Part shown: one piece after another, positions 867 to 45,988 of the stretch
Layout: every line of letters begins with the position of its first letter
Position numbering within the stretch: position 1 is the stretch's first letter
Assembly: GCA_963844965.1 (NCBI GenBank)
Contig: CAWJQC010000001.1
Span: 1 to 48,809 of the forward strand
Direction: 5' to 3'
From: an uncultured bacterium
GTDB taxonomy: Bacteria; Patescibacteriota; Minisyncoccia; UBA6257; 2-01-FULL-56-20
DNA: 48,809 nucleotides
The notes under the pieces: generated by a model
Told to the model about the DNA's origin: nothing
Database searches by the model: none
What the model saw: only the letters and a program-made list of their open reading frames with translations
Made by a program: the position numbers and the translations under genes

Positions 867-1229
867 ATGAAACTCGACGATCTTGAAGTTTATAAACTGG
901 CCGGAGAAATTTCCGACGAGTCATGGTTGATTTACGAAAAGTTAAATTGGCGCGACAGGAAAATTATAGGAGATCAGTTTATCCGCGCCGTGGATTCTAT
1001 TGCCGCCAACATAGCTGAGGGCTTCGGCCGTTTTCATTACCTGGACAAAAATAAATTTAACTATAACGCACGCGGTTCGCTATTTGAATCAAAGCACTGG
1101 ACGAGTTCACTCTTTAAAAGGAATTTAATAACCAAGAAACAATTTGATTCCTTGGACCATAAACTTAATAATTTAGCCGTCAAACTAAACAACCTTATCG
1201 TTTCCACGCGGCGTCAATTGAGTAAATAA
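867..1229 (+). CDS. four-helix-bundle protein (TIGR02436-like; '23S rRNA intervening-sequence protein' family)
   Basis: 120 aa; motif IRAVDSIAANIAEGFGRFHYLDKNKFNYNARGSLFESKHW characteristic of this family. Confidence 0.75.
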   Translation: MKLDDLEVYKLAGEISDESWLIYEKLNWRDRKIIGDQFIRAVDSIAANIAEGFGRFHYLDKNKFNYNARGSLFESKHWTSSLFKRNLITKKQFDSLDHKLNNLAVKLNNLIVSTRRQLSK

Positions 1230-8921: not shown

Positions 8922-8924
8922 GAA

Positions 8925-9040
8925 TATCCAGAATCTAGAAATTAGAAAGTAGAGAATAGAATAAAGAAAACCAAGATTGAATTAGTTGACTTTCACCTTC
9001 TACTTTCTAGATTCCATTTTCTATTTTCTTGCTCTTTTCG
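8925..9040. repeat. AT-rich palindromic intergenic element (TAGAAAGTAGA / TCTACTTTCTA; AAATAGAAAATAGAA / TTCTATTTTC family)
   Basis: ctagaaattagaaagtagag ... ccttctactttctagattccattttctattttc; related copy at 28441-28560. Confidence 0.45.
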
Positions 9041-9487
9041 TCAATAGTTCGGCGGCGGACCCGACGGACCGGTTATGCGCGGCGGACCGGTCGGACCCTT
9101 GAAACCGGGAGGGACCCATTTTGTTGACGTTCCTGAATTGGTTGGCGATGACGGGATCGATGTTTCGGAACCGGAAGCCGAAGAAGAGGAGTCGGTTCCT
9201 GTTTTCGTTACGCCGGCATTACCCGCTGGCGTGGTGCTCGTCGCGAATTTCGGGATCAATTGGTAGAAAGAGTTTAGTATTTGAAGACGCGCGCTTTCGG
9301 AAAGAACGAAAATTGTTATGAGACAAACCGCTACGACCAAAGAAATTGTAAGAGCGAAAGACTTCACGGAAATGGAGTCGCCAATTAATGATTGCGGAAT
9401 TTTATTTTTTTCTGCGAAAGCCACGATTTTTTCCAGGGAGGCGCTTGCCGTGGCATATATAACAAGAATAACAAAAAAACCGCCCAA
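9041..9487 (-). CDS. hypothetical membrane protein with short collagen-like C-terminus
   Basis: 148 aa, two TM segments, C-terminus GFKGPTGPPRITGPSGPP. Confidence 0.45.
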   Translation of the reverse strand: MGGFFVILVIYATASASLEKIVAFAEKNKIPQSLIGDSISVKSFALTISLVVAVCLITIFVLSESARLQILNSFYQLIPKFATSTTPAGNAGVTKTGTDSSSSASGSETSIPSSPTNSGTSTKWVPPGFKGPTGPPRITGPSGPPPNY

Positions 9488-11935: not shown

Positions 11936-12073
11936 CTAATCCGACCCCCTTTCAAAGAGGAAATATAAGGCTTTGTGAAGAAAACTGCCCCCAGTGTACT
12001 CTAAATTAAGATATATGTCAAGTGCTATGGGCACTTGACTTTTTTAAACAGTATGTTATTATATAGGAATCTT

Positions 12074-15000
12074 ATGACTTATCAACACATTTACAAAGCC
12101 ATTTTGTCAAGGTTCACCGCTACACTATTCCTTGCGGCGCTTGCTGTGTTTTTGGGTTTTATCCCTGTTCACGCCGCGATTTACAATGCGAGCGGCCTCC
12201 TTGGACACATAGACCAAAGCGGAAATCCCATATACACGTCCGGCGGAATGAACAACGGACCGAACGCCAAGGGTTTGTATGTTCCGGCCGATACGGCACT
12301 CGATGCGGTAAATCACCGGCTTTTCGTGGTGGACACCAACAACGCCCGCGTTCTGGTTTTTTCTCTGACCTCTGCGGATGGCATTTCCTCCGTAACTCCT
12401 TCTTATGTGATAGGGCAAAGCGATTTCGTATCGGCTGACGCGGCGACCGTGTCGCAAAACCGGCTAGCGTATCCCGTAGGCCTCGCCTATGATTCCGCGA
12501 ACAGCCGGCTTTTCGTTTCCGATCAGGTTAATAACCGCGTCCTGGTGTTCAATGTCGCTCCGGGAACGATCGCGAACGGCGAGAACGCCTCTTATGTTCT
12601 TGGTCAAGGAAATTTTTCTTCTAACTCTGCCAACACGACCCAAAATGGTCTTAGTACTCCTTACGGACTTGCCTATGACGCCACAACGACGCGCCTTTTC
12701 GTTTCGGACCAGACGAACAACCGCGTTCTGGTGTTCAATGTGGCGGTTTCTTCCATGTCCAACGGAATGAACGCATCGTATGTCCTGGGGCAAGCTAATT
12801 TTACATCATCAGCCGCAGCCACTAAGAGCAGCGGCTTGAATACGCCGTATGGTGTCATGGTGGACGGCAATAGCCGCTTATTCGTCGCCGATAGCGGGAA
12901 CAACAGAGTTTTATATTATAGCGTTTCATCCATTACGAACGGCAAAGCGGCAACGAGGGTTTTGGGACAAGGAACTAGTTTTACCACATCGGCCGCGGCC
13001 ACGACACAATCTGGTCTTTCCGCTCCGCAAGGCCTGGCTTACGATTCCAAGTCCAACCGTCTTTTCGTCGCGGATGACGGCAACAACCGCATAATGGTGT
13101 TCTCCGTGGGAACGGGGAATTTCACGAGCGGGATGAATGCGTCATATGTTCTGGGACAGACTTCTTTTACTGCGGCCGCCGCCAATATTTCACAGAACGG
13201 CTTGAGCGCTCCATATGGTCTTGCCTATAGTTCCGCGAACAGCCGGCTTTTCGTCGCGGACCAAACGAACAGTCGCATTATGCTTTTTAACGCGGCTACC
13301 TCAACCATCTCTAACGGTGAAAACGCTTCCGGTTTGTTTGGCCACACGGACCAAAACGGGAATCCATTGTATACCATAGGCGAACCGAACAACGGCCCGA
13401 GCGCTCAGGGGTTTAATTATCCTTACGGAACCACGCTTGATGCCGTGAATCATCGTCTTTTTGTTTCCGATCAGACGAACAACCGCGTCCTGGTTTTTGC
13501 TTTGGATTCAAACAATAATATTTCAGCCACCACCGCCTCCTATGTTCTGGGTCAGAGCAGCTTCACTGGTTCGTCCCCGTCAACTTCACAGGGCGGTCTC
13601 AGCGCTCCACATGGTTTGGCATATGACGCGGCGAATAACCGTCTGTTCGTGTCCGATACCAGCAACAACCGCGTCCTGGTGTTCAATGTCGCTCCGGGAA
13701 CGATCGCGAACGGCGAGAACGCTTCGGTGGTTTTGGGACAATCTTCTTACACGACTTCGGATCCCGCCGTCACCCAGAACGGCCTCAATGCTCCCTATGG
13801 TCTTGTCTACGATCCGTCGAACGGCCGCCTCTTCGTAGCGGATAACAGTAACCAGCGCGTAATGGTCTTCAATACCATCGCGAACGGAGCGAACGCCGCT
13901 TTTGAGCTCGGTCAGAGCGACTTTGTGACATCCAATTCCGCCGCAAGCCAAAGCGGGCTCTCCGGCCCCGCCGACCTTGCTTATGACTCCTCAACGAGCC
14001 GCCTTTTCGTGGCCGATCAGATAAATAACCGCATCATGATTTTTAATGTTTCAACATCCACGATGGCGAACGGCAAAAATGCCGCGCACGTTTTGGGTCA
14101 GGCTGATTTCACGGCATCCAATGTCAACACAACCCAAGGGGGATTGAGCGGCCCTTACGGACTTGCGTACGACGCGACGAGAGGACAGCTCTACGTCGCG
14201 GACGTCAACAACAGCCGCATTCTCGTGTTCAACGCGATAGTTTCCGCGCTGGCCGACGGAGAGAATGCGTCAAACGTTTTGGGAACAGCGGATTTTGTCT
14301 CGGTTGGAGGCGGCACGTCGCAGAGTTCGGTCAATTCTGACAATTCGCTCGCAGATGATACCGCGAGTAACAGACTTTTTGCGGTAGACGGCCCCGATAA
14401 TCGCGTCACAGTCTTTTCATTGGTGAGGGTCAATGCTGCGTCCCTGCCCGGCGGCACGGTCGGGGCAGCTTATTCTGCGACAATCACGGCTTCGCAGTCG
14501 CAGGGAACGCTGAGCTTTGCAATCGCGAGCGGCAGTCTGCCGCCGGGACTTTCTCTGAACGCTTCTACGGGCGCGATATCGGGAGCGCCGACGGTCGCGA
14601 CAACGTCCGTCTTTGTGGTTGAGGCCGACGACGCATTCTCCACAGGCTCGTTCTTTGACCGCGCGACGTTCTCCATTACTGTTTCCGGGGGCGACACCAC
14701 TCCTCCTTCCGTCCCCACAGGACTCATGGCTACCGGAACGACCACTTCCACCATTTCCTTGTCCTGGACCGCTTCTACCGATTCCGGTGGCAGCGGACTT
14801 GCGGGATACAAGATATACAGGGACGGCACGCAGGTGGGAACCTCTACGGCTCCAAGCGCGACCTTCACCGACACCGCCCTTACAGCGTCCACGACCTACG
14901 CATATACGGTCAGTGCCTATGACAACGCCGGAAACGTTTCCGCGCAGTCATCGGCGATAAACGCCACGACCCAGTCTCTTTCCGACACGACGCCTCCCTC

Positions 15001-16621
15001 CGTACCGTCAGGACTTGCTGTTTCAACGACCACGTTGAGTTCGGTGTCGCTCACTTGGACCGCCTCTACGGACAATGTCGGTGTCACGGGATACGAGATC
15101 TACCGCAACGGCACGCAGACCGGAACTTCCACCTCGACCTCTTTCACAGATACCGGTCTTACGGCCTCAACTACATATTCCTATGCCGTCTCTGCCTATG
15201 ACGCAGCCGGCAACAACTCGGCAACCTCAACCTCTGTGAGCGCGACAACTTCGGCAGCGAGTAGCGGCGGTGACAGCGGCGGAGGTAGTGCTTCAACAAC
15301 TGTCACACTTTCTGCGATTACTGGGCCAACCGTCACGGTTGGAGACACTGCCGCCTTCACTGCAAACGCAACGGACTCTGATGCCAGCGGCACCGTTTCA
15401 TACGGCCTTACCGGCGCTCCTTCCGGTGCAACAATTGACGCATCATCTGGTGCGTTCTCGTGGAACACAACCGGAGTCACACCTGGCACATACACCTTCT
15501 CAGTGACTGCAACCGGCAGCACCGGTGGCTCTGATAGTAAGGACGTCTCAATTACGGTAAATGCGGCACCTGTGCCCGCGACGAGCACATTGAACGTTAC
15601 AGTGTTGGTTGACAATTCGCAGGGCGGCTTGGCAACCCCCTCCGACTTCACGGTCAGCGTTTATGCAAGCAATCCGAGCACATCCACCTTCCCGGGAAAC
15701 GCTTCAGGCACTACTGTGACCGTTGATGAGAATACTACCTACAGCGTGAATATTTCTTCGCTGAATGATTATTCTTCCGCTAATAACGGTAGTTGCGCTG
15801 GCACCACCGCGCCCGCCGGCAATTCAGTAAACTGTTCATTCACGGAAACATTCTTGCCCCTTATCTCACAACAGGGTTCGTCTAACCCGACCACTGATTC
15901 CATCACCGTAACCTGGACCACGGACCATCCGGCGACGAGCCGCGTGATCTACGACACCGTGTCGCATCCAACTTTGGGAGCGGCGCCGAACTACGGATAC
16001 GCCTATTCCACGGATGAGGACTCCACGCTTCTTACGAGCCACAGCGTGACTGTCTCCGGTCTTGCGGCTGGCACGACTTACTACTTCCGTGCTGTTTCCC
16101 ATGGCTCTCCCGAAACTGTAAGCGATGAATTCACCGGAACGACAACTTCGCCGGCGAGTAGCGGCGTGGGTAGTGCTACGGTCAGCGGCGGTGGCGGAGG
16201 GGGTGGAGGCGGCGGTGGTGGCGGAGGAGGAGGTGGTGGCGGAGGATATATTTCTCCTACCGAGCCAACCCAATCTCCGGCGTCAACTCAAAACGCCGCA
16301 GTGGACCCGAATGCCACACTCCGGTCTTTGCTGGAAAAGCTGCAAATCTTACTCGCACAACTGAACTCTAAATTGAAGTCGCAATTTACTCGCGATCTTA
16401 CCATAGGGTCGTCGGGAGATACCGTTCGCGTTCTTCAGACGTTCTTGAACATCAACGGTTATCCCATCGCCAGCACCGGTATCGGCTCTCCAGGCAACGA
16501 ATCCGCCTATTTCGGAGTGAAGACCGCCGCCGCTCTAGCTAAGTTCCAGGAGGTACACGGCCTTCCCCCAACCGGATACTTTGGCTCACTCACGAGGCAG
16601 ATAATAATGGGAATAAAGTAA
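12074..16621 (+). CDS. giant cell-surface protein: about 14 NHL repeats, Ig-like and Fn3 domains, 22-residue poly-Gly linker, C-terminal peptidoglycan-binding (PG_binding_1) domain. ORF track start 12035; ATG 12074 preferred because it follows a TGTTATTAT -10-like element and gives a signal peptide
   Basis: Repeated NNRVLVF(N/S) NHL motif; SLSWTASTD..GYKIYRDG Fn3; GDTVRVLQTFLNINGYPIASTG...LAKFQEVHGLPPTGYFG PG-binding. Confidence 0.7.
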   Translation: MTYQHIYKAILSRFTATLFLAALAVFLGFIPVHAAIYNASGLLGHIDQSGNPIYTSGGMNNGPNAKGLYVPADTALDAVNHRLFVVDTNNARVLVFSLTSADGISSVTPSYVIGQSDFVSADAATVSQNRLAYPVGLAYDSANSRLFVSDQVNNRVLVFNVAPGTIANGENASYVLGQGNFSSNSANTTQNGLSTPYGLAYDATTTRLFVSDQTNNRVLVFNVAVSSMSNGMNASYVLGQANFTSSAAATKSSGLNTPYGVMVDGNSRLFVADSGNNRVLYYSVSSITNGKAATRVLGQGTSFTTSAAATTQSGLSAPQGLAYDSKSNRLFVADDGNNRIMVFSVGTGNFTSGMNASYVLGQTSFTAAAANISQNGLSAPYGLAYSSANSRLFVADQTNSRIMLFNAATSTISNGENASGLFGHTDQNGNPLYTIGEPNNGPSAQGFNYPYGTTLDAVNHRLFVSDQTNNRVLVFALDSNNNISATTASYVLGQSSFTGSSPSTSQGGLSAPHGLAYDAANNRLFVSDTSNNRVLVFNVAPGTIANGENASVVLGQSSYTTSDPAVTQNGLNAPYGLVYDPSNGRLFVADNSNQRVMVFNTIANGANAAFELGQSDFVTSNSAASQSGLSGPADLAYDSSTSRLFVADQINNRIMIFNVSTSTMANGKNAAHVLGQADFTASNVNTTQGGLSGPYGLAYDATRGQLYVADVNNSRILVFNAIVSALADGENASNVLGTADFVSVGGGTSQSSVNSDNSLADDTASNRLFAVDGPDNRVTVFSLVRVNAASLPGGTVGAAYSATITASQSQGTLSFAIASGSLPPGLSLNASTGAISGAPTVATTSVFVVEADDAFSTGSFFDRATFSITVSGGDTTPPSVPTGLMATGTTTSTISLSWTASTDSGGSGLAGYKIYRDGTQVGTSTAPSATFTDTALTASTTYAYTVSAYDNAGNVSAQSSAINATTQSLSDTTPPSVPSGLAVSTTTLSSVSLTWTASTDNVGVTGYEIYRNGTQTGTSTSTSFTDTGLTASTTYSYAVSAYDAAGNNSATSTSVSATTSAASSGGDSGGGSASTTVTLSAITGPTVTVGDTAAFTANATDSDASGTVSYGLTGAPSGATIDASSGAFSWNTTGVTPGTYTFSVTATGSTGGSDSKDVSITVNAAPVPATSTLNVTVLVDNSQGGLATPSDFTVSVYASNPSTSTFPGNASGTTVTVDENTTYSVNISSLNDYSSANNGSCAGTTAPAGNSVNCSFTETFLPLISQQGSSNPTTDSITVTWTTDHPATSRVIYDTVSHPTLGAAPNYGYAYSTDEDSTLLTSHSVTVSGLAAGTTYYFRAVSHGSPETVSDEFTGTTTSPASSGVGSATVSGGGGGGGGGGGGGGGGGGGGYISPTEPTQSPASTQNAAVDPNATLRSLLEKLQILLAQLNSKLKSQFTRDLTIGSSGDTVRVLQTFLNINGYPIASTGIGSPGNESAYFGVKTAAALAKFQEVHGLPPTGYFGSLTRQIIMGIK

Positions 16622-18039: not shown

Positions 18040-18252
18040 ATCTGGTTGCTACATTGTTGCACTAAAAAGCGCGGAAAATCAAGCCCGGTAGTGGTTCTGC
18101 GATTGTAATTCGGATTGTATAGTTATCGCTGCACGAGTTCTCCTTGTTTGCTATTTTGTCGTAACAGGCAATGAAAAATCGTTCCGAATTGCGGTGGGTA
18201 TTGTCGCAGAACTACTACCAGGCAAGCCGTGTTATAATTCAAATGAAATGTG

Positions 18253-18376
18253 TCCCGTTAGAGACCGCTTCGCTACGGGAACGCCTCAATTACATAAACC
18301 ATGCCTTATTTGTTAAAAATAATAATGACAGATAACGATTCGTCTAACCGGCGAAGCGTTCCCTGTCTCTAACGGG
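18253..18376 (+). promoter_or_regulatory. structured 5' leader of the pil operon: long imperfect inverted repeat whose 3' arm contains the pilM start codon
   Basis: GTCCCGTTAGAGACcgcttcgctacgggaacgcc ... ggcgaagcgttccctGTCTCTAACGGGAT-GG (14-bp perfect core plus flanking complementarity); ATG at 18377. Confidence 0.3.
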
Positions 18377-19480
18377 ATGGACACCGCGAACATCTTCAAA
18401 ACCTTCAAATTTTTCAAACAGAGCGTTTTTCCCTCGTATCTCGGTGTTGATATCGGCACGACCTCCATAAAGGTTGTGGAGGTGAAGCCGGGCAAGCAAC
18501 TGCCGGAAGTTGTGAATTACGGATTTCTTGACTCAGGCGGCCAGCTCTCGCGCGCGAACCAAGCGTTGCAGACGAGCACGCTTAAACTTTTTGAGAAAGA
18601 AGCGGCAGAACTTCTGAAGTTGTTGGTTGGAGAAATGAAGACCAAAAGTACGGATGCCTTCGCGTCGCTGCCGACCTTTTCGGTTTTTATGACCGTTCTC
18701 GATTTCCCGGAAATGAAAGCCGGCGAGATAGAAAGGTCCATGGTGTTTCAGGCGAAACAATATATCCCCTCGCCGATCTCGGAAGTTGCGCTTGATTGGA
18801 TGAAGGTCGGTGAATATAAGGACGACAAGGGATTCACGCACCAGCAAATACTTTTGATATCCGTGCCGCAGGAAAGTATCAAGAAGTATCAGACGATCTT
18901 CAGGCTTGCCGGATTGAACTTGAAGGCGCTTGAGATTGAAAGTTTGAGCCTTACGAGAATTTTTGGAGGGACCGATCTCTCGCCGGCCATTGTGGCGGAT
19001 ATCGGCAGCCGCTCCACGAACATTATTTTTCTTGACAAAGGGCAGTTGAAATTCAACAAGCAGAGCGATTTTGCCGGAGCGTCGCTCACTCAGGCCCTCT
19101 CGGAGAGTTTGGGTATAAATTCGCTTCGCGCGGAAGAGCTGAAGAAGGAACGGGGGGTCGCGGGGACCGGTCCAAACTACGAGTTATCCACAATAATGAT
19201 GCCCCTTTTGGATGCTATAATTAACGAGATAAAGAAGGCGCGCTACAGTTACGGGGAACAGTTTCCTGGAGCGGCGAAGGCCGAAAGGTTGATCATTTCC
19301 GGCGGCAGCGCCAACCTCATTGGTGTTGAGAAATATTTTGAAAGAGAGTTTGGCCTGCCGGTTATAAAGGCAAATCCGTTCGCGAAGTTTGAGTATCCGC
19401 CGGCAATTGATTCAATGGTACCGGAACTCAATCCGATAATGAGCGTAGCGCTGGGACTGACGCTAAGAGAATTCATTTGA
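18377..19480 (+). CDS. pilM: type IV pilus assembly protein PilM (actin-like ATPase fold)
   Basis: 367 aa, YLGVDIGTTSIKVVEV and DIGSRSTNIIFLDKG motifs. Confidence 0.85.
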   Translation: MDTANIFKTFKFFKQSVFPSYLGVDIGTTSIKVVEVKPGKQLPEVVNYGFLDSGGQLSRANQALQTSTLKLFEKEAAELLKLLVGEMKTKSTDAFASLPTFSVFMTVLDFPEMKAGEIERSMVFQAKQYIPSPISEVALDWMKVGEYKDDKGFTHQQILLISVPQESIKKYQTIFRLAGLNLKALEIESLSLTRIFGGTDLSPAIVADIGSRSTNIIFLDKGQLKFNKQSDFAGASLTQALSESLGINSLRAEELKKERGVAGTGPNYELSTIMMPLLDAIINEIKKARYSYGEQFPGAAKAERLIISGGSANLIGVEKYFEREFGLPVIKANPFAKFEYPPAIDSMVPELNPIMSVALGLTLREFI

Positions 19481-19578
19481 AATTTCTAATTACCAATTTC
19501 TAATTTCTAAATAAATCCCAAATTACAATTTCCAAATTGTTTAGAAATTAGGTATTAGAAATTGGAAATTTAAAGTAC
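19481..19578. repeat. AT-rich intergenic palindromic element (AATTTCTAATT...CCAATTTCTAAATAAAT...TTGTTTAGAAATTAGGTATTAGAAATTGGAAATTT)
   Basis: Homologous to the element at 20841-20968. Confidence 0.5.
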
Positions 19579-20139
19579 ATGGCTCTTCCACAAAAAGTTA
19601 TTGAGCAACTTGGGCGCGAGCCGCCGAGAACGCCTGGCTGGTCAGGACAGCTTCTTATATTTTCAAGCACCGTTTTCGTGGTTTGCCTTTTCATATATCT
19701 CGGGCTTGTTTTCGGTTACCAGTCATATCTGCAGGATGGAGTTCAGAAACTTCAGGACCAAATCCAGCTTTTCAGTCAAAAAATTCCTACGGACGAGCAG
19801 GCGAAACTGGTCAGTTTTTATTCGCAAATCGCGAATTTGCGGTCATTGATCTCCAATCGTGTCATATCTTCGCGCGCCCTTGCCTGGCTTGAGAAGAACA
19901 CGCAAGCGAATTCTTACTTGGACAAATTCGGCCTGGACACCGCCGGTGCCAAGATGACCGTTGGCGTCAAATCCAAAACGATGGCGGATGCGTTGCAACA
20001 AATCGCCATATTTGAGAACCTGCCGGAGATTAAAAGCGTTGACATAGGCGGCATAAGCTTCAGCGAAAATTTGTGGCAGTTTGACGCGACCATTGTGCTC
20101 ACGCCCGGGTATTTCAATTATGGCAGCGGCAACCAGTAG
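19579..20139 (+). CDS. pilN: PilN-like pilus assembly protein (short cytoplasmic N-terminus, single TM, periplasmic domain)
   Basis: 186 aa, TM LLIFSSTVFVVCLFIYLGLVFGY; position directly after pilM. Confidence 0.5.
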   Translation: MALPQKVIEQLGREPPRTPGWSGQLLIFSSTVFVVCLFIYLGLVFGYQSYLQDGVQKLQDQIQLFSQKIPTDEQAKLVSFYSQIANLRSLISNRVISSRALAWLEKNTQANSYLDKFGLDTAGAKMTVGVKSKTMADALQQIAIFENLPEIKSVDIGGISFSENLWQFDATIVLTPGYFNYGSGNQ

Positions 20140-20198
20140 AAAAATTAAAAATTTCCCACAGCCTTTAATTTTTTGATGTTTAATCTTCAATTTGTTTC

Positions 20199-20840
20199 AT
20201 GAAGCAGACTACAAAAAGATTCTTAAGTATGATTTTGGGTCTGGTATTTCTCCTGTCCTCTTTACTTATGTATCTTGAGCTGATTCAGCCTGCCTACAGC
20301 AACGCTCAACAAACGAAAGCGCAGAAAAACAGCCTGCAGGTTTTTTTCGACAGCGAGGAAAAAGTCGTTGAACAGGTTGAGAAGCTGGCAAGTTCTTACG
20401 AAGGGGAAGGTGAGGTGCAGCAGGCGGTTTCCGAAGTTCTTCCGACGAGGATGGACATCGCCGGGGCGATAGCCCAACTCTACGGTCTTGCGCAAAACAA
20501 CAACTTGGCGGTGAAGTCTCTCGACCTGTCCACGGCGCCAGCCCCGCTTAAGAAAAATACGAACGCTAACCCGGGAACCACCCAGCTTTCGGGCTTTGAA
20601 ACTTCTTTGCAGAAAGGTGTCGGCACCGTATCTTTTGAATTACAATTGAGTGGGAGCTACGAAGACCTGAAAAATTTCCTGTCCGCCATTGAGACCAATG
20701 TCAGGATTTTTGACGTTGGACAGATCGAGGTCCAGCCCGTACCGGTCACCGTAGGTGTGGGCAAGGCCGGCAGCGCGAACGTGCCGCAAGACCTGTTTGA
20801 CTATAATTTTTCCCTGAAGACCTATTACCAAAGCCAATAA
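20199..20840 (+). CDS. pilO: PilO-like pilus assembly protein
   Basis: 213 aa, N-terminal TM and coiled-coil region; position in pilMNO order. Confidence 0.5.
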   Translation: MKQTTKRFLSMILGLVFLLSSLLMYLELIQPAYSNAQQTKAQKNSLQVFFDSEEKVVEQVEKLASSYEGEGEVQQAVSEVLPTRMDIAGAIAQLYGLAQNNNLAVKSLDLSTAPAPLKKNTNANPGTTQLSGFETSLQKGVGTVSFELQLSGSYEDLKNFLSAIETNVRIFDVGQIEVQPVPVTVGVGKAGSANVPQDLFDYNFSLKTYYQSQ

Positions 20841-20968
20841 TAATGAAAATTTCTAATTTCTAATATCCAATTTCTAAATAAATTTTAATATCCCAAATCA
20901 CAAAATTTATAATTTTAGCCATTAAGATTTTGATATTGTTTAGAAATTAGGATTTAGAAATTGGAAAT
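20841..20968. repeat. second copy of the AT-rich intergenic palindromic element
   Basis: aatttctaatttctaatatccaatttctaaataaat...ttgtttagaaattaggatttagaaattggaaattt. Confidence 0.5.
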
Positions 20969-21268
20969 TTGATAACCATGGCCATAGTCATTGAGGAGGA
21001 AAAAAACAGAATCAGTCCAATCAGCATCGCCACTTGGCTTGTGGTGCTTATCATTATCGGCCTCGCCGCTTACTATATCTTTTTCACACAGCCGGAGCTT
21101 ATTGAAGTTGCGGCCCCGTCCAATTTCCAGAACATTGACCCATTGTCAAAAATTAATCTTAATCCCGAAGATGTGGTAAACGGTTCGGGTTTCCAGTCCC
21201 TGAAGCCCACAATAACGTTGCCGGTGCCCGGCAACGCCGGAAGGGACAACCCGTTTCTGGCGCGATAA
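20969..21268 (+). CDS. small single-TM protein inside the pil operon (possible PilP-like)
   Basis: 99 aa, TM WLVVLIIIGLAAYYIFF; no recognisable family. Confidence 0.4.
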   Translation: MITMAIVIEEEKNRISPISIATWLVVLIIIGLAAYYIFFTQPELIEVAAPSNFQNIDPLSKINLNPEDVVNGSGFQSLKPTITLPVPGNAGRDNPFLAR

Positions 21269-24208: not shown

Positions 24209-24303
24209 TTACTCAATTATGCGATTAACGAACTGCGGATTGACGGATCGGATTCATTCGTTAATTCGTTGATGCGTTAATCCTTTAATTTCGGATTTAA
24301 ATA

Positions 24304-27783: not shown

Positions 27784-28449
27784 ATGCCCAAGAGGAGAAC
27801 TTCCGGACCTATCTCTGCGCCGGAACAAGAAGTCCGCGGCTTACGGCGCTCAAGGCGCGCCTCTCATTCGGCGCGGGGGTTTACTCTCATTGAACTTTTG
27901 GTTGTCATCGCCGTGACCGTTCTCCTCTCAACCTATATCATCAGCTATCAGAGGACGGGCCAGCGGCAGATTCTTCTCTACGTTGAGAGTCAAAAGATAG
28001 CGAGTTTGATCTTGAAGGCGAAATCGTTGGCGATAGAATCGTTCGTTGACGTGAGTCAGGGCAATTGCGGTTATGGCTTGAGGGTGGATTACAGCGGAAA
28101 AAGTTACGGCATATTTTACTACGCGACTTCCACCACCGACAATGAGTCAAAGTATATCCAATGCCAAGAAATCAAAAGGAGCGGCAGCTTGGCGCCGGGC
28201 CGCATAGTCCCTTTCTCGGATACGACACAGCTTAATTCCGAACTTGTTTTTTGGACACCCCCGCCCGGGAACGCCACGCCGCCACTTTACTACGTTCTTT
28301 TCGTACCGCCGGATCCCGAAACACTGCTTGTCGACCAGAGTGGTGACATAGTTTCAGGTCCAGGTTCCGAGGCCGTCTATCTTGAAACCAAGGACGGTCT
28401 GGCGAGTACCACGGTCGTCGTTAATCCAGCCGGTCAGGTGAATTTCTAA
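27784..28449 (+). CDS. minor pilin / pseudopilin with long N-terminal leader (..ARG|FTLIELLVVIAV)
   Basis: Prepilin-type N-terminal cleavage/methylation motif at residues about 30-45. Confidence 0.65.
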   Translation: MPKRRTSGPISAPEQEVRGLRRSRRASHSARGFTLIELLVVIAVTVLLSTYIISYQRTGQRQILLYVESQKIASLILKAKSLAIESFVDVSQGNCGYGLRVDYSGKSYGIFYYATSTTDNESKYIQCQEIKRSGSLAPGRIVPFSDTTQLNSELVFWTPPPGNATPPLYYVLFVPPDPETLLVDQSGDIVSGPGSEAVYLETKDGLASTTVVVNPAGQVNF

Positions 28450-28560
28450 ATTCAGAAAGTGGAAAATAGTAAATAGAAAATAGAAAAATCAATGCCAGCT
28501 TTAAATAGGATGAGAAGTAAAAGAAAAAAATCACCACCCTCTACTTTCTACTTTCTCCGG
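28441..28560. repeat. AT-rich palindromic intergenic element related to 8925-9040 (AAATAGAAAATAGAAAA ... CTCTACTTTCTACTTTCTCC)
   Basis: Shared TAGAAAGT/ACTTTCTA and ATAGAAAATAGAA motifs. Confidence 0.4.
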
Positions 28561-28639
28561 TGGCCGAGCACAAGGGGCAGACCCCGTATGACAACTGCGG
28601 TAGCGGCAACTCAATGCCGCAAGGAAATTAAGAAGTAAT

Positions 28640-32655: not shown

Positions 32656-33020
32656 TTTTGCCCGGTAGTAGACCGAGTGCAGCAACGCCCCGTCACCAAA
32701 CAAGCACCTCGTTTTTCCCAGCGACTTTGCATATACCGTGCTTTTCGTTCCCAGTATATGACTTGTAGATACCGACGTTTATCCAAGAAAAACGGTCGGT
32801 CGCTGCAGTACTTGTTTGGTGCGGGGCAACGCATGTACGCTTTCCCGCCACAAACGATTACCTTTGGTAAATTGATGGTTTTGAGTGACAGTTTTCCCAA
32901 AATCAGGCGTTGTGGAAAGCGTAGCGCTTGGCTCACTACCGGGTTTGCCCGGTAGTGAAATTGCGAGTGGTCGCCGAAGGCGACGTAAACAAAATGCTCG
33001 CAATTCTACTACCGGGTTTG
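32656..33020. repeat. nested inverted-repeat element: GTTTTGCCCGGTAGTAGAC (32656) ... CTACCGGGTTTGCCCGGTAG (32936, palindromic) ... TCTACTACCGGGTTTG (33005); highly hairpin-rich interior; MITE-like or structured RNA
   Basis: Three copies of the ACCGGGTTTG / CAAACCCGGT core read directly; internal long imperfect IR 32691-32716 / 32808-32832. Confidence 0.45.
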
Positions 33021-33027
33021 TTATAAT
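33019..33027 (+). promoter_or_regulatory. extended -10 TGTTATAAT only 8 nt upstream of ATG 33036 (leaderless mRNA predicted)
   Basis: Read directly. Confidence 0.45.
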
Positions 33028-33035
33028 TTAATCAA

Positions 33036-34390: not shown

Positions 34391-35115
34391 ATAATTCGCC
34401 GGTGTTGGTGGGAACTCCAATTTATGTTAACGGGCGCGTCTGCGGGGGCTATACCTACACGAGCGGGGGCGGCGGGTCAGCTACTATCGCCGGTGATCCA
34501 GATCATACATGCGACACCAGAAGCGGATCAACCAAGGCGGGACTCACGATGATTGCCATCGCGCCCGTACTTCCTACTGTTAATATTTATCCCGATGCCG
34601 CTTCCGTTCCTTTGAATAAGGCCACGAATATCCATTGGAGTTCCGAATATACCACCGATTGCTCAATAACGATCATGGCCAACGGCGTGACCACGCCGAG
34701 CGGCTGGACAGTAAACCCGAACGTTGATGGTTCTCACACGACCGGAAATTTAACTTGGCCAACGACTTATACAATAAACTGCGACGGCAGTTTCGGCGGC
34801 AAAGTGACCATGTCGGCCACCGTGAGTATTGACCCGCCAGATATGAACCTGCAAGCCAATCCCACTTCTATTGATGTGTGTGCTTCTCCGATCATTGCCT
34901 GCGGCGGTGATCCCAACACTTGCGGACGCTCAGTTGTAAGTTGGGGTCCGATTATAAATGTCACAAGTTCCAGTAATTGTAAACTTTCCGGAAATTGGTC
35001 CGGTACGTTGTCGTCGCCCGATATTTCACTTTCACCAGGCGGTGTTCTGTCTCCGTCATATTACCCTTCCGGTATCTCTCAGCTTGACGGGTGTTACCTC
35101 AACAAGAACGTATAA
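34378..35115 (+). CDS. Cys-containing Ig-like repeat protein; probably the N-terminal part of the giant gene below (frame switch needed near 35050-35115)
   Basis: Contains the same TYTINC..G..G..TV.V domain signature as the downstream gene; the domain continues across the stop codon in another frame. Confidence 0.45.
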   Translation: MAFVNNSPVLVGTPIYVNGRVCGGYTYTSGGGGSATIAGDPDHTCDTRSGSTKAGLTMIAIAPVLPTVNIYPDAASVPLNKATNIHWSSEYTTDCSITIMANGVTTPSGWTVNPNVDGSHTTGNLTWPTTYTINCDGSFGGKVTMSATVSIDPPDMNLQANPTSIDVCASPIIACGGDPNTCGRSVVSWGPIINVTSSSNCKLSGNWSGTLSSPDISLSPGGVLSPSYYPSGISQLDGCYLNKNV

Positions 35116-38100
35116 TATGACCTGCTACGGCCCTGGCGGGAGTTTTTCCGAAACTGCCACCGTGACCATTAATCCCGCGACAGTGGGGCTTACTCCCAAC
35201 CCTGGGTCCGTTGATTTGTATAAAACATCCGTAATAAATTGGGGCATAACTAACGTTACGACTCTTAACTCCTGTGCTCTAGGGGACGCTTGGGGAAGCA
35301 GTTCTCCTCCGCCTCTTCACCCATCGTCTTGCTCCGGTAATTATACGACTCCGTCATTGGTTGCGCCCACGACCTATTCCATCGGGAGCTGCACCGGGCC
35401 TGGAGGAAAACAGAATCCCGATCCCGAATCTGTGACGGTCGGCATAAATGACCCGAATATAAACATGGCTGCTGTTCCGGCCCAGCTCCACCTTAGTGAG
35501 TTAAGCGGCGGCTCGGTTATAAAATGGGGCAGGGACGCGGTTGGCACAAATAGTCCCAGTGATGACATCGGTAATGTCACAAGCACGGCTAATTGCACGC
35601 TTTCCGCCATTCCGCCTGCGAGCGGCTGGTCCGGCACGCTCTCGGCTTTCCACGGCACCTACGCGACGGGACCGCTATCATCAAGCAATCTTACATACAC
35701 ATATAATATAACCTGCAAGGGAGCGGGACAGAACGGGGGAACTACCACCGGGAAAGCTATAGTGTCCGTCGCTCCGCCCGAAGTTTCCATCAATGCGAGT
35801 TCTACTACGATCAGTCCCGGTTCTTCCACGGTAATAACTTGGAACTCTACGGATACCACCGCCTGCGTGGAGTCGTGGGTGAACAGCACGACAGGTAATC
35901 CTAACTGGGCCAACAGTCTGTCTAACAGCGTAGGGACAAACACCGGCCCTCTCACGGACAACACGACGTATTCAATAAGTTGCACTGGCGCCGCCGGCGC
36001 AACCGCGCAAGATTCCGTTACGGTGAGCATGAATACCGGCGCGCCGACCATTACTGAATTCAAGGCCACGCCGCCCGCCGTGTCGCCCGGCGACTCCACC
36101 ACAATAACCTGGAGTTCCACCAACGCCACCAATTGCAATGTGTCGTCCACCACAGACGGCGTAAACTGGACGGCCGTTGGGAGCGGTACCTCCAACACCA
36201 CAGGGGTTTCAAGCGGCCCGCTTACGAAAGATACGACTTATGAAATCACTTGTCACGGTCCCGGCGGAGATACACAGCGGTCAATCACGGTCAGGGTTGG
36301 GAATTTCATATGCCCGGATATGGGTGCGATCAACGTAAGTTCCACGAATTCCTGGGCGGACAATGACCATCCGAACAATTTATTGCCCGGTGATTACGTT
36401 ACAAGTTCGTGGCAATTTACGCCTCCCTCATCGGTTGACCCCTGCGATCAGGGTTGCGCGAATTTGTCCCATAACGGATACACGAATCTTCCGGCGAGCG
36501 CGGCGGCTCCGGCAGATTGCCCGTATACACTTATCCCCGTTCAGGGCAGCGCCGGACCGCTCTATGCCTTGAAAAAAGTTGATACGAAACTTGCCGCCAT
36601 AGGAGAAGGCGATCTTGGCTTGAGCTGGCTCAAGAACTCGTTGCTCAATATTGCCAAAGCATTTGTTGTTTGGCCGGGCACATCCACTTCTTCTTACACC
36701 CAGGGTCTCAGTCCGTCCGCTTATTACGATGACTGGCTTGTTTTCTCGGATCCCGCCAAAACCAACTCCAGCCACATCAACTTCAGTGTGGGCACTGGTT
36801 CTTCTACCGCTCTTACGATCAACGGCACCACGATTGGCAGTTTCACCGTCGGCCAGAAATGGACGCTGGACATAACAAGCAACATGCCGAAAACAAATTT
36901 CAGTTTCTGCGTCAACTCTAACTCCAGCTGTAACCCCTATACCACGGATGCGAACGGCAACTGGACCCTAAGCGGCGATTTTCCGCTTTCCACTGTCGGT
37001 TCCTGGAGCGAGTGGGCGGTGTTCCCGGGCGGCGTCAATTCCGATACCATCAGTTTCACCGTGGGCGCCGCTCCCTTTGCCGCTCTTATGGTCAATACCA
37101 CAACTATCAACGCCTTTGGTTTCGGCCAGACCATAACCTACGCGCTCGCCTCAAACATTCCTAAGACGAGCTTTGAAGTGTGCTATAAGCTTGATGGCGT
37201 GGCGCAGCCGTGCGTCAACTCAAGTTTTACGGACCCGAATTATCAGACGGACCCGAGCGGCAATTGGAGCACGCAGCAGACGCAAGACTTATCTACTACT
37301 GGTGCCGCCGGCCATTCTTACGAGGACTGGTTTGTCTTCCGGGATTCCGACCAGACCAATTCCAGCCACGTCAATTTCATCGTGAGCCCCGGCACTCTCG
37401 CGATCAACGGCGTTACTGCTGGTAGTTTTACGGTGGGCCAAGCATGGACACTGAACGTAACGAGCAGTATGCCGAACACTAGTTTCACCATTGAATGCAG
37501 CATGGATAGCGGTGCGCCATTTGCCTGCGATAGCGGCACCACTGACCCGAACGGCAACTGGACCACTCTAGGCGGCGATACCTTTCCCGCTTCCGTCGCT
37601 GGTTCTTGGGAAGAGTGGGTAGTCTTCTCAAACGGCGCCAGCTCTACCCATATTAACTTCAAAGTGAGCCAGGGTCCTACCGCTGCTCTCACGATCAACG
37701 GCGTTACGACCGGCAGTTTTACCGTCGGCCAGAAATGGACGCTGAACATAGCAAGCAATATGCCGAGCACCAATTTCAGCTTCTGCGTCAACTCCGGTTC
37801 TAACTGCAGACCATACACCACTGACCCGAACGGTAACTGGAGTCTGAGCGGCACTTTCAATTCCGATTCCATCGGTTCCTGGAGCGAGTGGGCGGTGTTC
37901 CCGGGTGGCCCCAATTCCAATTCTATCAGTTTTACTGTGGGCGCCGCTCCATTTGCCGCTCTCACGATTAACGGCGCTACGTCTGGTAATTTCGGCGCAA
38001 ACCAGGCGTGGATTCTGAACATAGCAAGCAATATGCCGAGCACCAATTTCAGCTTCTGCGTCAACTCCGGTTCTAACTGCAGACCATACACCACTGACCC

Positions 38101-39430
38101 GAACGGCAACTGGAGTCTGAGCGGCACTTTCAATTCCGATTCCATCGGTTCCTGGAGCGAGTGGGCAATATTCTCAAATTCCGCCCAAACCTATTCCAAT
38201 CTCATCAATTTCAGCGTGGCCTCTATTTCCCCGGCCACTCTCACGATCAACGGCGCCGCTGCCGGCACTTCCGGCGTCGGCCAGACCGTAACATACACGC
38301 TTGTTTCGGGTGTACCCAGCGCGAGCTTTAAAGTGTGCTATGACTACAATGGCGTAACGCAGCCCTGTTTGACCGATCCAAAATATTTCACAGATGCATA
38401 CGGTAATTGGAGTACGAAGCAAACTTTAACCCCCAATACTGCCGGCTCGGCCGCTCTTTTCAATATTGAATGGGACCCGCTCGCGGAGATAACTGTGACC
38501 TCTACTTCGCCGATTCCTCCGCCTTCCTGTCCGGACGGTCAGATTTGCTTTAACGAGACAAGTACGGCGGAAGGAACGGTCGCGGTATCAAATAATGGTG
38601 CCGACCATTCGCAACTTGATTGGTCCGTAAGCGACCAATCTTCCGCCAATTTCCCCAGTTGGCTTACGGTTTCGCCGTTGTCTTCCACCTCCACTGGCTC
38701 CACCGGACCGATTAACAAGGATGGCCAGCCGCAGACCGTGAATGTTGATTGTGATACCAGTTCCGTTCCGTTCGGTACACAAACTTCAACTGTGCTCGTT
38801 TTCTCGGGTATGACGCACGGTATTCCTGGCCAACAAGCCGCCGATTCTCCCCGAACCGTCACCGTTAACCTTTCTCTTGCGATACCTCCTGTTACGATAA
38901 ATCCGGCTAACGCGACTACCACCGTTTATACACCCGTCGCATTCACGGTCGCCGGGGGCATGGGCACCTCGTATTCCTGTTCCGTTTCCGGTCCGGCGTA
39001 CGTGAGCTGCGCGGTCCTCGGCGAAAACATTCCTTTCAATATCAGTTTCCCGGCTGTTGGAACTTATACCATCACGGTTACCGATACCGACCCCACGAAC
39101 ACGACGGGCGACAATACTGCTACCGCTTCCGTTGTTGTTGCGGTGGTGCCCGCGAGTTGCGATTTCTCCGCATCGGCTGGCGGCTTATCAACCAACTGCA
39201 TTCTCTTATCGGCATCCACGACCCTCTCCTGGTCGTGCGAGTATGTTGATCCCGTCAAGGGTTGCACGCTTAACGGCTCGGCCGTTGCATCTAGCGGGAG
39301 CCGTATAGTATTCCCGACGTCCACGACGGTTTACACGCTCCATTGCGCCGGAGCAGGAGGCGGCCAGGACGCGATAGTTCCACTGCAGGTTTGCGTGAGA
39401 ACGCAGAGTTGGAAAGAAATTCCGCCATAA
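34958..39430 (+). CDS. giant secreted adhesin-like protein built from about 100-aa Ig-like repeats (TY.I.C.G.GG....TV.V; ..NC.VS.) and a second repeat family (..ING.T.G.F.VGQ.WTL....MP.T.F.....S..C.PYTTD.NGNW..SG.F....GSWSEW.VF). Start uncertain: ATG 35117, or fused with 34378..35115
   Basis: Repeats read in translation; near-identical DNA tandem copies 37737-37900 / 38017-38180. Confidence 0.6.
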   Translation: MSQVPVIVNFPEIGPVRCRRPIFHFHQAVFCLRHITLPVSLSLTGVTSTRTYNMTCYGPGGSFSETATVTINPATVGLTPNPGSVDLYKTSVINWGITNVTTLNSCALGDAWGSSSPPPLHPSSCSGNYTTPSLVAPTTYSIGSCTGPGGKQNPDPESVTVGINDPNINMAAVPAQLHLSELSGGSVIKWGRDAVGTNSPSDDIGNVTSTANCTLSAIPPASGWSGTLSAFHGTYATGPLSSSNLTYTYNITCKGAGQNGGTTTGKAIVSVAPPEVSINASSTTISPGSSTVITWNSTDTTACVESWVNSTTGNPNWANSLSNSVGTNTGPLTDNTTYSISCTGAAGATAQDSVTVSMNTGAPTITEFKATPPAVSPGDSTTITWSSTNATNCNVSSTTDGVNWTAVGSGTSNTTGVSSGPLTKDTTYEITCHGPGGDTQRSITVRVGNFICPDMGAINVSSTNSWADNDHPNNLLPGDYVTSSWQFTPPSSVDPCDQGCANLSHNGYTNLPASAAAPADCPYTLIPVQGSAGPLYALKKVDTKLAAIGEGDLGLSWLKNSLLNIAKAFVVWPGTSTSSYTQGLSPSAYYDDWLVFSDPAKTNSSHINFSVGTGSSTALTINGTTIGSFTVGQKWTLDITSNMPKTNFSFCVNSNSSCNPYTTDANGNWTLSGDFPLSTVGSWSEWAVFPGGVNSDTISFTVGAAPFAALMVNTTTINAFGFGQTITYALASNIPKTSFEVCYKLDGVAQPCVNSSFTDPNYQTDPSGNWSTQQTQDLSTTGAAGHSYEDWFVFRDSDQTNSSHVNFIVSPGTLAINGVTAGSFTVGQAWTLNVTSSMPNTSFTIECSMDSGAPFACDSGTTDPNGNWTTLGGDTFPASVAGSWEEWVVFSNGASSTHINFKVSQGPTAALTINGVTTGSFTVGQKWTLNIASNMPSTNFSFCVNSGSNCRPYTTDPNGNWSLSGTFNSDSIGSWSEWAVFPGGPNSNSISFTVGAAPFAALTINGATSGNFGANQAWILNIASNMPSTNFSFCVNSGSNCRPYTTDPNGNWSLSGTFNSDSIGSWSEWAIFSNSAQTYSNLINFSVASISPATLTINGAAAGTSGVGQTVTYTLVSGVPSASFKVCYDYNGVTQPCLTDPKYFTDAYGNWSTKQTLTPNTAGSAALFNIEWDPLAEITVTSTSPIPPPSCPDGQICFNETSTAEGTVAVSNNGADHSQLDWSVSDQSSANFPSWLTVSPLSSTSTGSTGPINKDGQPQTVNVDCDTSSVPFGTQTSTVLVFSGMTHGIPGQQAADSPRTVTVNLSLAIPPVTINPANATTTVYTPVAFTVAGGMGTSYSCSVSGPAYVSCAVLGENIPFNISFPAVGTYTITVTDTDPTNTTGDNTATASVVVAVVPASCDFSASAGGLSTNCILLSASTTLSWSCEYVDPVKGCTLNGSAVASSGSRIVFPTSTTVYTLHCAGAGGGQDAIVPLQVCVRTQSWKEIPP

Positions 39431-44874: not shown

Positions 44875-44949
44875 GCGGCCGTGGTGTAGCCTGGTTAACA
44901 CGTCCCCCTGTCACGGGGAATATCACGGGTTCAAATCCCGTCGGCCGCG
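44875..44949 (+). tRNA. tRNA-Asp (anticodon GUC); flanking sequence extends the acceptor helix to about 17 bp (AGCGGTTCGCGCGGCCG / CGGCCGCGCGAACCGCT)
   Basis: GCGGCCG-TG-GTGT-AGCCTGGTTA-ACAC-G-TCCCC-CTGTCAC-GGGGA-ATAT-CACGG-GTTCAAAT-CCGTG-CGGCCGC-G. Confidence 0.85.
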
Positions 44950-45024
44950 CGAACCGCTGGAACGCCTTCGTTTCAAATATTCGATTTCAGCAATAGCACT
45001 AAATGTAAAAATTTGGTGCGGGTT

Positions 45025-45062
45025 ACGGGGAAGGTTGTGGGTTCAAATCCCATCGCCCGCGC
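45025..45062 (+). other. degenerate tRNA-Asp 3'-half fragment (TACGGGGAAGGTTGTGGGTTCAAATCCCATCGCCCGCGC)
   Basis: About 80% identical to the 3' half of the intact tRNA-Asp. Confidence 0.4.
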
Positions 45063-45089
45063 AAAGACAAAGACAAGGTGGGGGATAAA

Positions 45090-45122
45090 GGGAAGATCAC
45101 GGGTTCAAATCCCGTCGGCCGC
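45090..45122 (+). other. exact 29-nt copy of the tRNA-Asp 3' end (ATCACGGGTTCAAATCCCGTCGGCCGCGC), candidate att-site remnant; an inverted 14-nt copy (GACGGGATTTGAAC) lies at 45179-45192
   Basis: Direct repeat of tRNA positions about 47-75, read directly. Confidence 0.5.
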
Positions 45123-45129
45123 GCTAAAA

Positions 45130-45164
45130 CCAAAAGACGATGACCTTGTGCCATCGTCTTTTGG
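45130..45164. other. perfect 13-bp stem-loop (CCAAAAGACGATG-accttgtgc-CATCGTCTTTTGG)
   Basis: Read directly; possible terminator of the tRNA cluster transcript. Confidence 0.4.
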
Positions 45165-45348
45165 TTCCTAATGTAGTCGACGGGATTTGAACGGGGATGG
45201 GGTCGGTCAGACCGCAGTCAGAGGGTATCGCGGACGCGGTCAAGGAATCGCGGTTTTCGTTGCCGTTGCTGTATGCTATACTGTAATTAATAGTTCCAAC
45301 TCTTGCGCTTCTCTTGTTCTTGGTGTATGCTCGAAAAACATGAAAATG

Positions 45349-45965: not shown

Positions 45966-45988
45966 TTGAGTTTGCCTATCTGCCTGTC

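Follow-up and report, generated by a model that had tools for sequence, protein, structure and literature searches.

The DNA considered here, referred to as the window, is the whole of the 48.8-kb contig CAWJQC010000001.1 (48,809 nucleotides, nt) from an uncultured member of the Patescibacteria; homologues of its PilM are labelled as Patescibacteria (Paceibacteria-like). It carries a type IV pilus (pil) operon in the order PilM, PilN-like, PilO and a small conserved open reading frame (ORF), with PilB, PilT, PilC, pilins and PilD as further genes of the same operon. Two of the gaps between these genes are each occupied by an AT-rich palindromic element, and these two elements, copy 1 and copy 2, are the subject of the present analysis.

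Copy 1 is preceded by the PilM gene (18377–19480, plus strand; PF11104, E = 1e-33) and followed by the PilN-like gene (19579–20139, plus strand), which has no Pfam match and holds a fixed place after PilM in all relatives. Copy 2 is preceded by the PilO gene (20199–20840, plus strand; PF04350, E = 9e-7) and followed by the small ORF of 96 amino acids (aa) (20978–21268, plus strand), at a position where 96-aa genes are called in relatives. Since the homologues of this ORF align from residue 4 of the version that starts at TTG 20969 in the ORF list, ATG 20978 is the likely start and the TTG assignment is probably wrong. The gaps that hold the copies measure 98 nt (copy 1) and about 137 nt (copy 2), with a GC content of 0.18–0.20 as compared to about 0.5 in the genes. 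When 4227 Rfam models were run against the window, the gathering score was reached by tRNAs only; at a permissive E-value, both gaps returned just sub-threshold chance matches to microRNA precursors.

Architecture of the two hairpin elements

Copy 1 (19479–19571; inverted repeat I2/I17) lies between the PilM stop codon at 19480 and the PilN-like ATG at 19579. It may be considered in terms of a left arm at about 19480–19516, a short loop of about 20 nt with a CCCAAATTACA block, and a right arm at 19537–19571. Copy 2 (20846–20971; inverted repeat I5), between the PilO stop codon at 20840 and the ATG of the small ORF at 20978, has its left arm at 20847–20884, a loop of about 50 nt and its right arm at 20936–20970. 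In both, units of ~7 nt follow one another along the arms, TTTCTAA in the left arm and TTAGAAA in the right arm; the stems comprise about 35–45 pairs, and neither loop contains an ORF.

A sequence-only reading of this DNA had described two homologous palindromes at these sites, each folding as a long imperfect hairpin that ends a few nt before the next start codon, and both descriptions were confirmed. Within the window, the 35-nt right-arm core TTGTTTAGAAATTAGGNNTTAGAAATTGGAAATTT is present at two places and no others (19537–19571 and 20936–20970), with 0 occurrences expected from 100 shuffles. The left arms of the two copies are 89% identical, and alignment of the whole elements gave a mean column identity of 80%, the loop being longer in copy 2. 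The predicted fold of copy 1 has an energy of –24.9 kcal/mol (z = –4.45) and that of copy 2 an energy of –34.7 kcal/mol (z = –5.93); in each case, 0 of 200 shuffles were as good. Both stems end 7 nt upstream of an ATG (19579 and 20978). The heptamer TTTCTAA is found 17 times in the window where 7.5 are expected, and 10 of the 17 are within the two elements. The blocks that the sequence-only reading listed as shared required two amendments: CCAATTTCTAAATAAAT is unbroken in copy 2 only, one extra TTTCTAA unit being present inside it in copy 1, and the block given as AGG.TT.AGAAATT is properly AGG-NN-TTAGAAATT.

The family to which the copies belong has inner conserved blocks that can be written ...CTAAA(T/C)AA...CCAA... 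/ ...TTGTTTAG..., and a family profile built from ten members matched copy 1 with an E-value of 1e-17 and copy 2 with an E-value of 2e-24. The loop of copy 2 also contains a sigma-70-like site, TTAATA-17-TATAAT (10/12; 20885–20913), directed at the downstream genes. This site is missing in copy 1 and may be a chance occurrence in sequence that is 82% A+T.

Distribution in pil operons, ribosomal RNA and IVS-protein loci

The window was compared with six close orthologous pil loci and 77 more from metagenomes. Gap sizes at the pil junctions are bimodal. The PilM–PilN gap (72 loci) has a median of 14 nt; 45 gaps do not exceed 25 nt and 22 reach at least 60 nt. For the PilN–PilO gap (63 loci), the median is 4 nt and the corresponding counts are 52 and 8; for the gap between PilO and the next gene (31 loci), they are 9 nt, 21 and 10. 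Among the distinct PilM–PilN gaps of at least 60 nt, 10 of 19 clearly hold a long hairpin constructed like those in the window (z = –3.8 or below), and the unit sequences vary from genome to genome. In the closest relative (L001, PilM 83% identical), the PilM–PilN hairpin consists of TGAAAC/GTTTCA units and the junction after PilO is without a hairpin. Others are made of ACTAATG/CATTAGT units (L127, z = –11), GTAGAAT/ATTCTAC units (L194, z = –12) or ACGAAATAC-type units (L190), and the pil hairpins of L005 and L157 belong to the TTTCTAA family of the window itself.

Hairpin load is a genome-level trait, since both junctions are large in 7 genomes, one is large in 3 and neither is large in 17 (Fisher p = 1.4e-4). 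Copies of the TTTCTAA family look more alike within a genome than across orthologous sites, as judged by eye from the arm sequences. The presence of these hairpins at pil junctions is lineage-specific. The proposal in the sequence-only reading that they are placed specifically between pilus genes did not hold up: most orthologous junctions are compact, the hairpins of relatives can be of other unit families, and the TTTCTAA family is found in several phyla in unrelated operons, in 23S rRNA and around genes for the 23S rRNA intervening sequence (IVS) protein. The hairpins should not be annotated as operon-specific regulators.

The spread of the TTTCTAA family, termed family A, was followed with a 24-nt core chosen to fit both window copies and both copies in L005. 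A search of a collection with one genome per species returned at least 120 matches in these representative genomes. By their record titles, the 120 core loci listed comprise 63 from the Candidate Phyla Radiation (CPR)/Patescibacteria in many classes, 21 from Bacteroidota, including cultured Chryseobacterium, Riemerella and Flavobacterium, 13 from Gamma-/Pseudomonadota metagenome-assembled genomes (MAGs) and 23 others. Among the matches listed, 108 have two flanking genes, which are co-directional in 86. Where the hairpin is clear, the distance from the end of the stem to the following start codon has a median of 8 nt. None of 124 core matches was inside an ORF, an absence that is uninformative since every one of the six frames of the core is interrupted by stop codons. 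With the family profile, 115 places were identified in 92 of the fetched loci, and in the window just the two known copies. Both window copies are members of a family with conserved non-repeat blocks and a defined architecture, and not instances of a ubiquitous, low-complexity AT-rich sequence lacking any positional pattern.

Members of the family were also identified within 23S rRNA genes. In L023 (Berkelbacteria), a 129-nt family-A hairpin takes the place of a 3-nt helix tip near position 2170 of the Rfam LSU model. Its fold is strong (–47.1 kcal/mol, z = –8.2), and by blastn it is 77% identical to window copy 2 over 114 nt (E = 7e-16); many operon-spacer hairpins match it too. When the L023 insertion and the operon-spacer hairpins were aligned, the mean column identity was 64% and the consensus stem had 25 pairs. 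In L029 (Falkowbacteria), a family-A-like hairpin lies within the helix-45 loop of 23S rRNA. A second, near-identical copy lies just before the sequence that follows helix 25, the helix assignment being a reading of the alignment in a locus that is an 8-kb chunk with the 5' domain of 23S cut off. The same 23S rRNA gene contains a group I intron (2460–2766 of L029; Rfam RF00028, 62 bits).

Known since 1990, the IVSs of rRNA are located at helices 9, 25 and 45 of 23S, undergo excision by RNase III and sometimes carry the S23p/IVS protein; where they come from and what they do is still described as unclear (PMC4990558). Excision without re-ligation was shown for Coxiella, and is cited in the same work for Salmonella, Leptospira and Alphaproteobacteria (PMC4990558). 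The Coxiella IVS contains heptameric repeats in variable number beside the S23p ORF (PMC4990558). Among the CPR, rRNA genes are described as having IVS-protein ORFs and short unclassified insertions (PMC11270868).

The family described here shares with the IVSs of Salmonella, Leptospira and Coxiella an extended stem-loop of complementary ends, arm heptamers whose number varies (Coxiella, PMC4990558) and a sporadic distribution across phyla. An ORF for a four-helix bundle in the loop is optional in classical IVSs; the window copies have none, and arms of their type flank such ORFs elsewhere. In the window, both copies have complementary ends that form a long stem-loop, and their tandem heptamers differ in number, copy 1 having one unit more than copy 2 in one block. 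Unlike classical IVSs, the window copies are outside rRNA, in the spacers of a protein-coding operon, although their homologues in L023 and L029 do occupy 23S helix tips. Furthermore, RNase III excision was demonstrated for the classical IVSs and would be presumed for the window copies. From these comparisons, the window copies appear to be an extra-ribosomal variant of the IVS family. In the full-text literature, of which coverage was incomplete, no account was found in which an IVS-type hairpin or an IVS-protein cassette is an element of operon spacers.

The window contains a complete IVS-protein cassette of its own (740–1283), situated between an unannotated ORF and an O-antigen-ligase/TPR gene. 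The gene for the 23S rRNA IVS protein, a four-helix bundle (867–1229, plus strand; PF05635, E = 5e-23; TIGR02436, E = 1e-21), is in the loop of a hairpin whose left arm has GTAATTCA-type units (740–855; inverted repeats I7, I8 and I12 with 1241–1283) and whose right arm has TGAATTAC-type units (1241–1283) and ends just before ATG 1293 of the next gene. Cofolding of the two flanks of 867–1229 gave a gain of –43.6 kcal/mol, as compared to –7.4 ± 3.5 kcal/mol (minimum –16.8) in 138 control ORFs. Close homologues, chosen by protein similarity, have the same placement between co-directional genes with the downstream arm abutting the next ATG.

Cassettes of the same design are found with family-A arms. 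Among the loci chosen by the family-A core, four IVS-protein genes directly adjoin the core in the arrangement TTTCTAA units, ORF, TTAGAAA units, and TTTCTAA-type arms flank PF05635 genes in L015, L061, L109, L106, L225 and L227. The IVS proteins fall into two subfamilies with a mutual identity of 12–18%, and arm type tracks subfamily: subfamily 1, comprising the window protein and its homologues, has GTAAT/ATTAC-type arms and subfamily 2 has TTTCTAA/CCTAATT arms. Since subfamily 2 was first picked through its arms, the rule was retested on homologues chosen by protein alone, and CCTAATT/TTAGAAA arms were present in 2 of 2 independent loci, a CPR ATP-synthase operon and an Ignavibacterium chromosome. 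Between Patescibacteria, Ignavibacterium and Bacteroidetes, the identity of subfamily-2 proteins is 72–85%, a level indicative of horizontal transfer. Proteins of the PF05635/TIGR02436 type are very abundant; one subfamily gave at least 8000 candidates, with 7997 of those listed at an E-value of 1e-10 or better. We know of no role for these proteins outside diversity-generating retroelements. As to the TTTCTAA-recognising regulator that the sequence-only reading entertained, the only hint would be this co-variation of arm unit type with IVS-protein subfamily.

In L215/L216 (1–300 and 1501–2130), a single operon contains two IVS-protein genes at a distance of 1.3 kb. After the first come TTAGAAATTAG units of the family-A right-arm type. 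The second has a long AGTTAC-type run downstream only, making an asymmetric cassette with a cofold gain of just –2.8 kcal/mol. Many contigs with IVS-protein genes are shorter than 2 kb, as expected if repeats break assemblies. The repeat arms may break short-read assemblies in this way, so that cassettes and hairpins would be under-represented in MAGs. Hairpins of this kind explain the bloated AT-rich spacers, and may explain the contig breaks, of Patescibacteria assemblies.

A phage or plasmid origin was considered and rejected. There was no blastn match in 50,697 phage and 72,556 plasmid records, the core had only 6 matches in 2.9 million viral contigs, and no relatives of the IVS protein were found in viral contigs.

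Proposed interpretation as inserted spacer elements and competing explanations

The family occupies transcribed non-coding sites, namely the tips of 23S rRNA helices, the spacers between co-directional genes and, in a longer version, both sides of a PF05635 gene. With this distribution in mind, we interpret the window elements as ORF-less IVS-type elements inserted in transcribed spacer, with a probability of roughly 0.65. The finding of one family in three settings, as a 23S insertion, as the arms of an IVS-protein cassette and as an ORF-less spacer filler, would recast IVSs as general inserters into transcribed spacers, and it makes both the spread of IVSs and the role of the IVS protein testable.

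The following sequence of events may be envisaged. Two copies would have been inserted, or expanded, at the PilM/PilN and PilO/next-gene junctions in this genome. The operon transcript would then fold each element into a stem of about 35–45 bp, leaving an estimated 1 + 7 nt (copy 1) or 6 + 7 nt (copy 2) single-stranded between the stop codon and the ATG. In compact relatives, the PilM stop and the PilN ATG are 1–24 nt apart and no Shine-Dalgarno sequence is present. Since folding would leave only about 8–13 single-stranded nt, the insertion would be self-contained and tolerated, as it is at the tip of an rRNA helix. Cleavage of the stem by RNase III is probable by analogy with rRNA IVSs, and would divide the mRNA into a pilM segment, a pilN-pilO segment and a downstream segment. 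The differential stoichiometry suggested in the sequence-only reading might arise as a side effect of such cleavage, any change in pilus protein ratios being a by-product. If RNase III does cut these hairpins, they would represent a widespread and unrecognised segmentation of polycistronic mRNAs in reduced genomes.

A number of observations weigh against an IVS-type insertion. The cleavage step is drawn purely from analogy, and an RNase III gene was not found on the 48.8-kb contig; one RNase III homologue was seen in a family-bearing locus, L102. The tests for strand asymmetry were weak or negative. Sense and antisense folding energies compared at 35:24 (p = 0.11), G-U pairs at 226 versus 192 gave no clear strand signature, and element polarity relative to gene direction stood at 30 of 64 (p = 0.71). 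Only the exact core had a mild strand bias (54:32, p = 0.023, uncorrected). From these tests, there is room for an origin or a role at the level of DNA. The stems always abut the next start codon, and a role in translation initiation or coupling fits this placement as well as tolerance does. Family A is present at the same two junctions in three genomes (the window, L005 and L157), which could mean some position-specific retention. Lastly, the window IVS protein is in the other subfamily, with GTAATTCA arms, and the cognate subfamily-2 protein was not seen on the 48.8-kb contig.

A more far-reaching proposal, which we offer tentatively and consider rather less likely than its converse, is that the IVS protein and a cognate hairpin with heptamer arms make up a two-part selfish system. 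The cassettes with an ORF would be autonomous and the ORF-less hairpins of the pil type would depend on them. The protein may recognise its own arm units, and the system would invade any transcribed site where a self-folding insert is harmless, be it an rRNA helix tip or an operon spacer, and move between phyla. If this is true, a common biology would unite the PF05635 proteins, abundant as they are, with the IVSs of rRNA, which have long lacked an explanation.

Among the explanations that dispense with an inserted element, neutral replication slippage survives best and is still improbable. According to this explanation, heptamer microsatellites expand in AT-rich spacers and are made palindromic via template switching, with no element identity, mobility or function. 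Unit number does vary between near-identical strains. L001 and L002 are 99.7% identical over 8.7 kb and their sole internal indel, of 14 nt, corresponds to two units in one arm of the PilM–PilN hairpin; L211 and L212 are 97–98% identical in the IVS-protein and downstream genes and differ by one 11-nt unit in each arm. Slippage would also accommodate the variation of unit sequences between genomes, the lack of element polarity relative to transcription and the presence of the core as direct repeats only, without a partner arm, in some Bacteroidota (L113, L119). However, the non-repeat inner blocks and the overall length are conserved across phyla, the similarity is detectable by blastn, and the family recurs at canonical rRNA IVS sites. 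In addition, there is a tie between the arms and a single IVS-protein subfamily, the members of which are 72–85% identical across the three groups named above, and the change in unit number between L211 and L212 affected both arms together.

A function in translation is slightly less probable again. The hairpin would join the upstream stop codon and the downstream ATG, or cleavage would leave an unstructured AT-rich leader, and coupled translation would be kept or tuned. The short gaps of compact relatives (1–24 nt from the PilM stop to the PilN ATG, no Shine-Dalgarno sequence), the effective spacing of about 8–13 nt that the folded element would restore and the median of 8 nt between stem end and start codon are all consistent with this role. 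A similar idea was put forward for two other types of repeat. The STRR hairpins of the cyanobacterial hupS-hupL spacer resemble the window elements in that tandem units of about 7 bp pair within an intercistronic spacer; their function is given as unknown, with transcript stability or translational coupling proposed (PMC2670836). They differ in unit sequence and phylum, and no link to rRNA IVSs or PF05635 was made for them (PMC2670836). The TAACTGA repeats of Beggiatoaceae, Cyanobacteria and Bacteroidetes, found upstream of start codons, are likewise intergenic heptamers with stops in all frames that end a few nt before start codons (PMC4679880). Their patchy distribution across phyla suggested horizontal spread by a mechanism described as unknown (MacGregor 2015, PMC4679880). 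Nearly all TAACTGA repeats are direct and have no predicted structure, whereas the window elements consist of two inverted sets with a long stem and conserved inner blocks. Against a function in translation, the same elements are found in rRNA, where there is no translation, and tolerance of an inserted element fits the data as well as function does.

The idea that the hairpins are a regulatory RNA or operator specific to the pilus, setting the PilM:PilN:PilO ratios or binding a TTTCTAA-recognising pil regulator, is very unlikely. It draws on the two copies lying 1.3 kb apart within one operon, on the fact that L005 and L157 have the family at these two junctions as well, and on stems that abut start codons. 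In most orthologous operons, however, the junctions are too compact for an element, and L001 has a different unit family at PilM–PilN and no hairpin after PilO. Members of the family also occur in 23S rRNA, next to genes for IVS proteins and in operons unrelated to pil, that of ATP synthase among them, and no regulator gene is adjacent.

Correia (Neisseria) and ERIC (enterobacterial) MITEs (miniature inverted-repeat transposable elements) are co-transcribed hairpins, and Correia hairpins are RNase III substrates. Together with repetitive extragenic palindromic (REP) sequences and their BIME clusters, they resemble the window elements as repeated extragenic palindromes within operons that fold in mRNA. 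Least likely of all is that the window elements are non-autonomous insertion-sequence derivatives of this sort, either a transposase-driven MITE or a RAYT-maintained REP: terminal inverted symmetry, an intergenic site, multiple copies and presence/absence differences among relatives would fit, but there is no consistent target-site duplication (flanks ...TTTGA | AAAGTAC and ...AATGA | GATAACC), the arms are tandem short units and not unique terminal repeats, no transposase or RAYT gene was present among the scanned ORFs of the window (48.8 kb of the genome), no transposase lies between such arms in any locus examined, and a 120-aa four-helix-bundle protein is the only protein found inside such hairpins. 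The term REP-like, used in the sequence-only reading, applies loosely to repeated extragenic palindromes that would be co-transcribed with the operon. Under the REP definition in PMC3733652, it does not apply, since the elements are 93 and 126 nt in size and not 20–40 bp, begin with AAATTTCTAA and have no GTAG/CGTC end tag.

Three further classes were rejected. An intrinsic terminator has a G+C-rich stem and then a run of T; here the stems are rich in A+T, the sequences after them are AAAGTAC and GATAACC, and a terminator scan made no call. A DNA uptake sequence was considered since type IV pili take up DNA; outside the elements, TTTCTAA occurs 7 times as compared to 7.5 expected in the whole window. 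TIGR arrays share with the elements short repeats in non-coding CPR DNA and an occurrence in Patescibacteria, and some variants are stem-loop arrays (PMC12045711). In the TIGR-Tas system, in contrast, two repeats of 8–12 nt (edge and loop) alternate with 9-nt spacers between them, the units measure about 36 nt and recur 5–15 times, and a Nop-domain Tas protein is encoded alongside (PMC12045711). Each window element forms just one palindrome, its units are of about 7 nt and a 36-nt period is absent; the neighbours are PilM, PilN-like, PilO and PilB, and no Nop-domain match was present among the scanned window ORFs.

Other hairpins and repeats in the window

A further hairpin is located in the PilT–PilC gap (24209–24303). 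It has CGTTAAT-type units and a fold energy of –25.8 kcal/mol (z = –3.56), and it is of the same class as copies 1 and 2 in a different family.

The sequence-only reading had also described a second, related family at 8925–9040 and 28441–28560, of which the first member stands as a modest hairpin. Situated next to tRNA-Gly, it was folded as 8922–9042 with z = –1.7 on the plus strand and –2.6 on the minus strand. Its build is similar to that of copies 1 and 2 with the arm order reversed (TAGAAAG units followed by CTTTCTA units), and it has no family-A profile match. A similar reversed order is found in the PilM–PilN gap of L003 and around the IVS-protein gene of L103, which lies between two tRNA genes. 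The other sequence, folded as 28441–28562, is no more structured than its shuffles (z = +0.11). A single long-range stem of 12 bp is present in it, and short purine-rich units are all that it shares. Its membership in the second family is doubtful.

Two additional kinds of hairpin recur at the edges of operons and genes. The first, CCCGGTAGTG...CTACTACC(G/A)GG, is richer in G+C and lies about 8–12 nt 5' of a TATAAT box before operons. It is present at 18086–18240 (5' of pilM) and 32947–33030 (5' of the gene at 33036) in the window, at 1535–1652 in L001 and in the gap after PilO in L173, and constitutes a second, promoter-associated hairpin family. The other, a third family with conserved ends CCCGTTAGA(G/A)...T(C/T)TCTAACGGG, is present at 18252–18376, where it ends right at the pilM ATG, and occupies the PilN–PilO gap in L001, L005, L172 and L190.

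Toward the end of the window, the G+C-rich hairpin CCCCCGCCTTTTCGGAAAAAGACGGGGG forms four tandem repeats with a 32-nt period (47421–47552); the 140 nt at 47421–47560 fold at –79 kcal/mol. Single or double copies are also found 1.5 kb upstream (45937–45972) and 0.8 kb downstream (48267–48333), so that two minus-strand ORFs without a Pfam match are bracketed. Possible readings of this arrangement are a tandem terminator and a stem-loop array of another kind. Nearby, two incomplete copies of the 3' half of a tRNA (GGGTTCAAATCCC...GCCGCGC) come after tRNA-Asp (44875–44950), at 45015–45076 and 45077–45138, and a strong hairpin at about 45101–45200 takes in one of them. The region looks like the scars of integration at a tRNA gene.

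Internal DNA repeats are present in two giant genes. A protein of 1528 aa with NHL-repeat, fibronectin and peptidoglycan-binding regions is encoded at 12035–16621, with repeats mostly 186 nt apart, and an ORF of 1490 aa at 34958–39430 has repeats of 273–291 nt. Both are of the secreted type and bear no relation to the hairpins.

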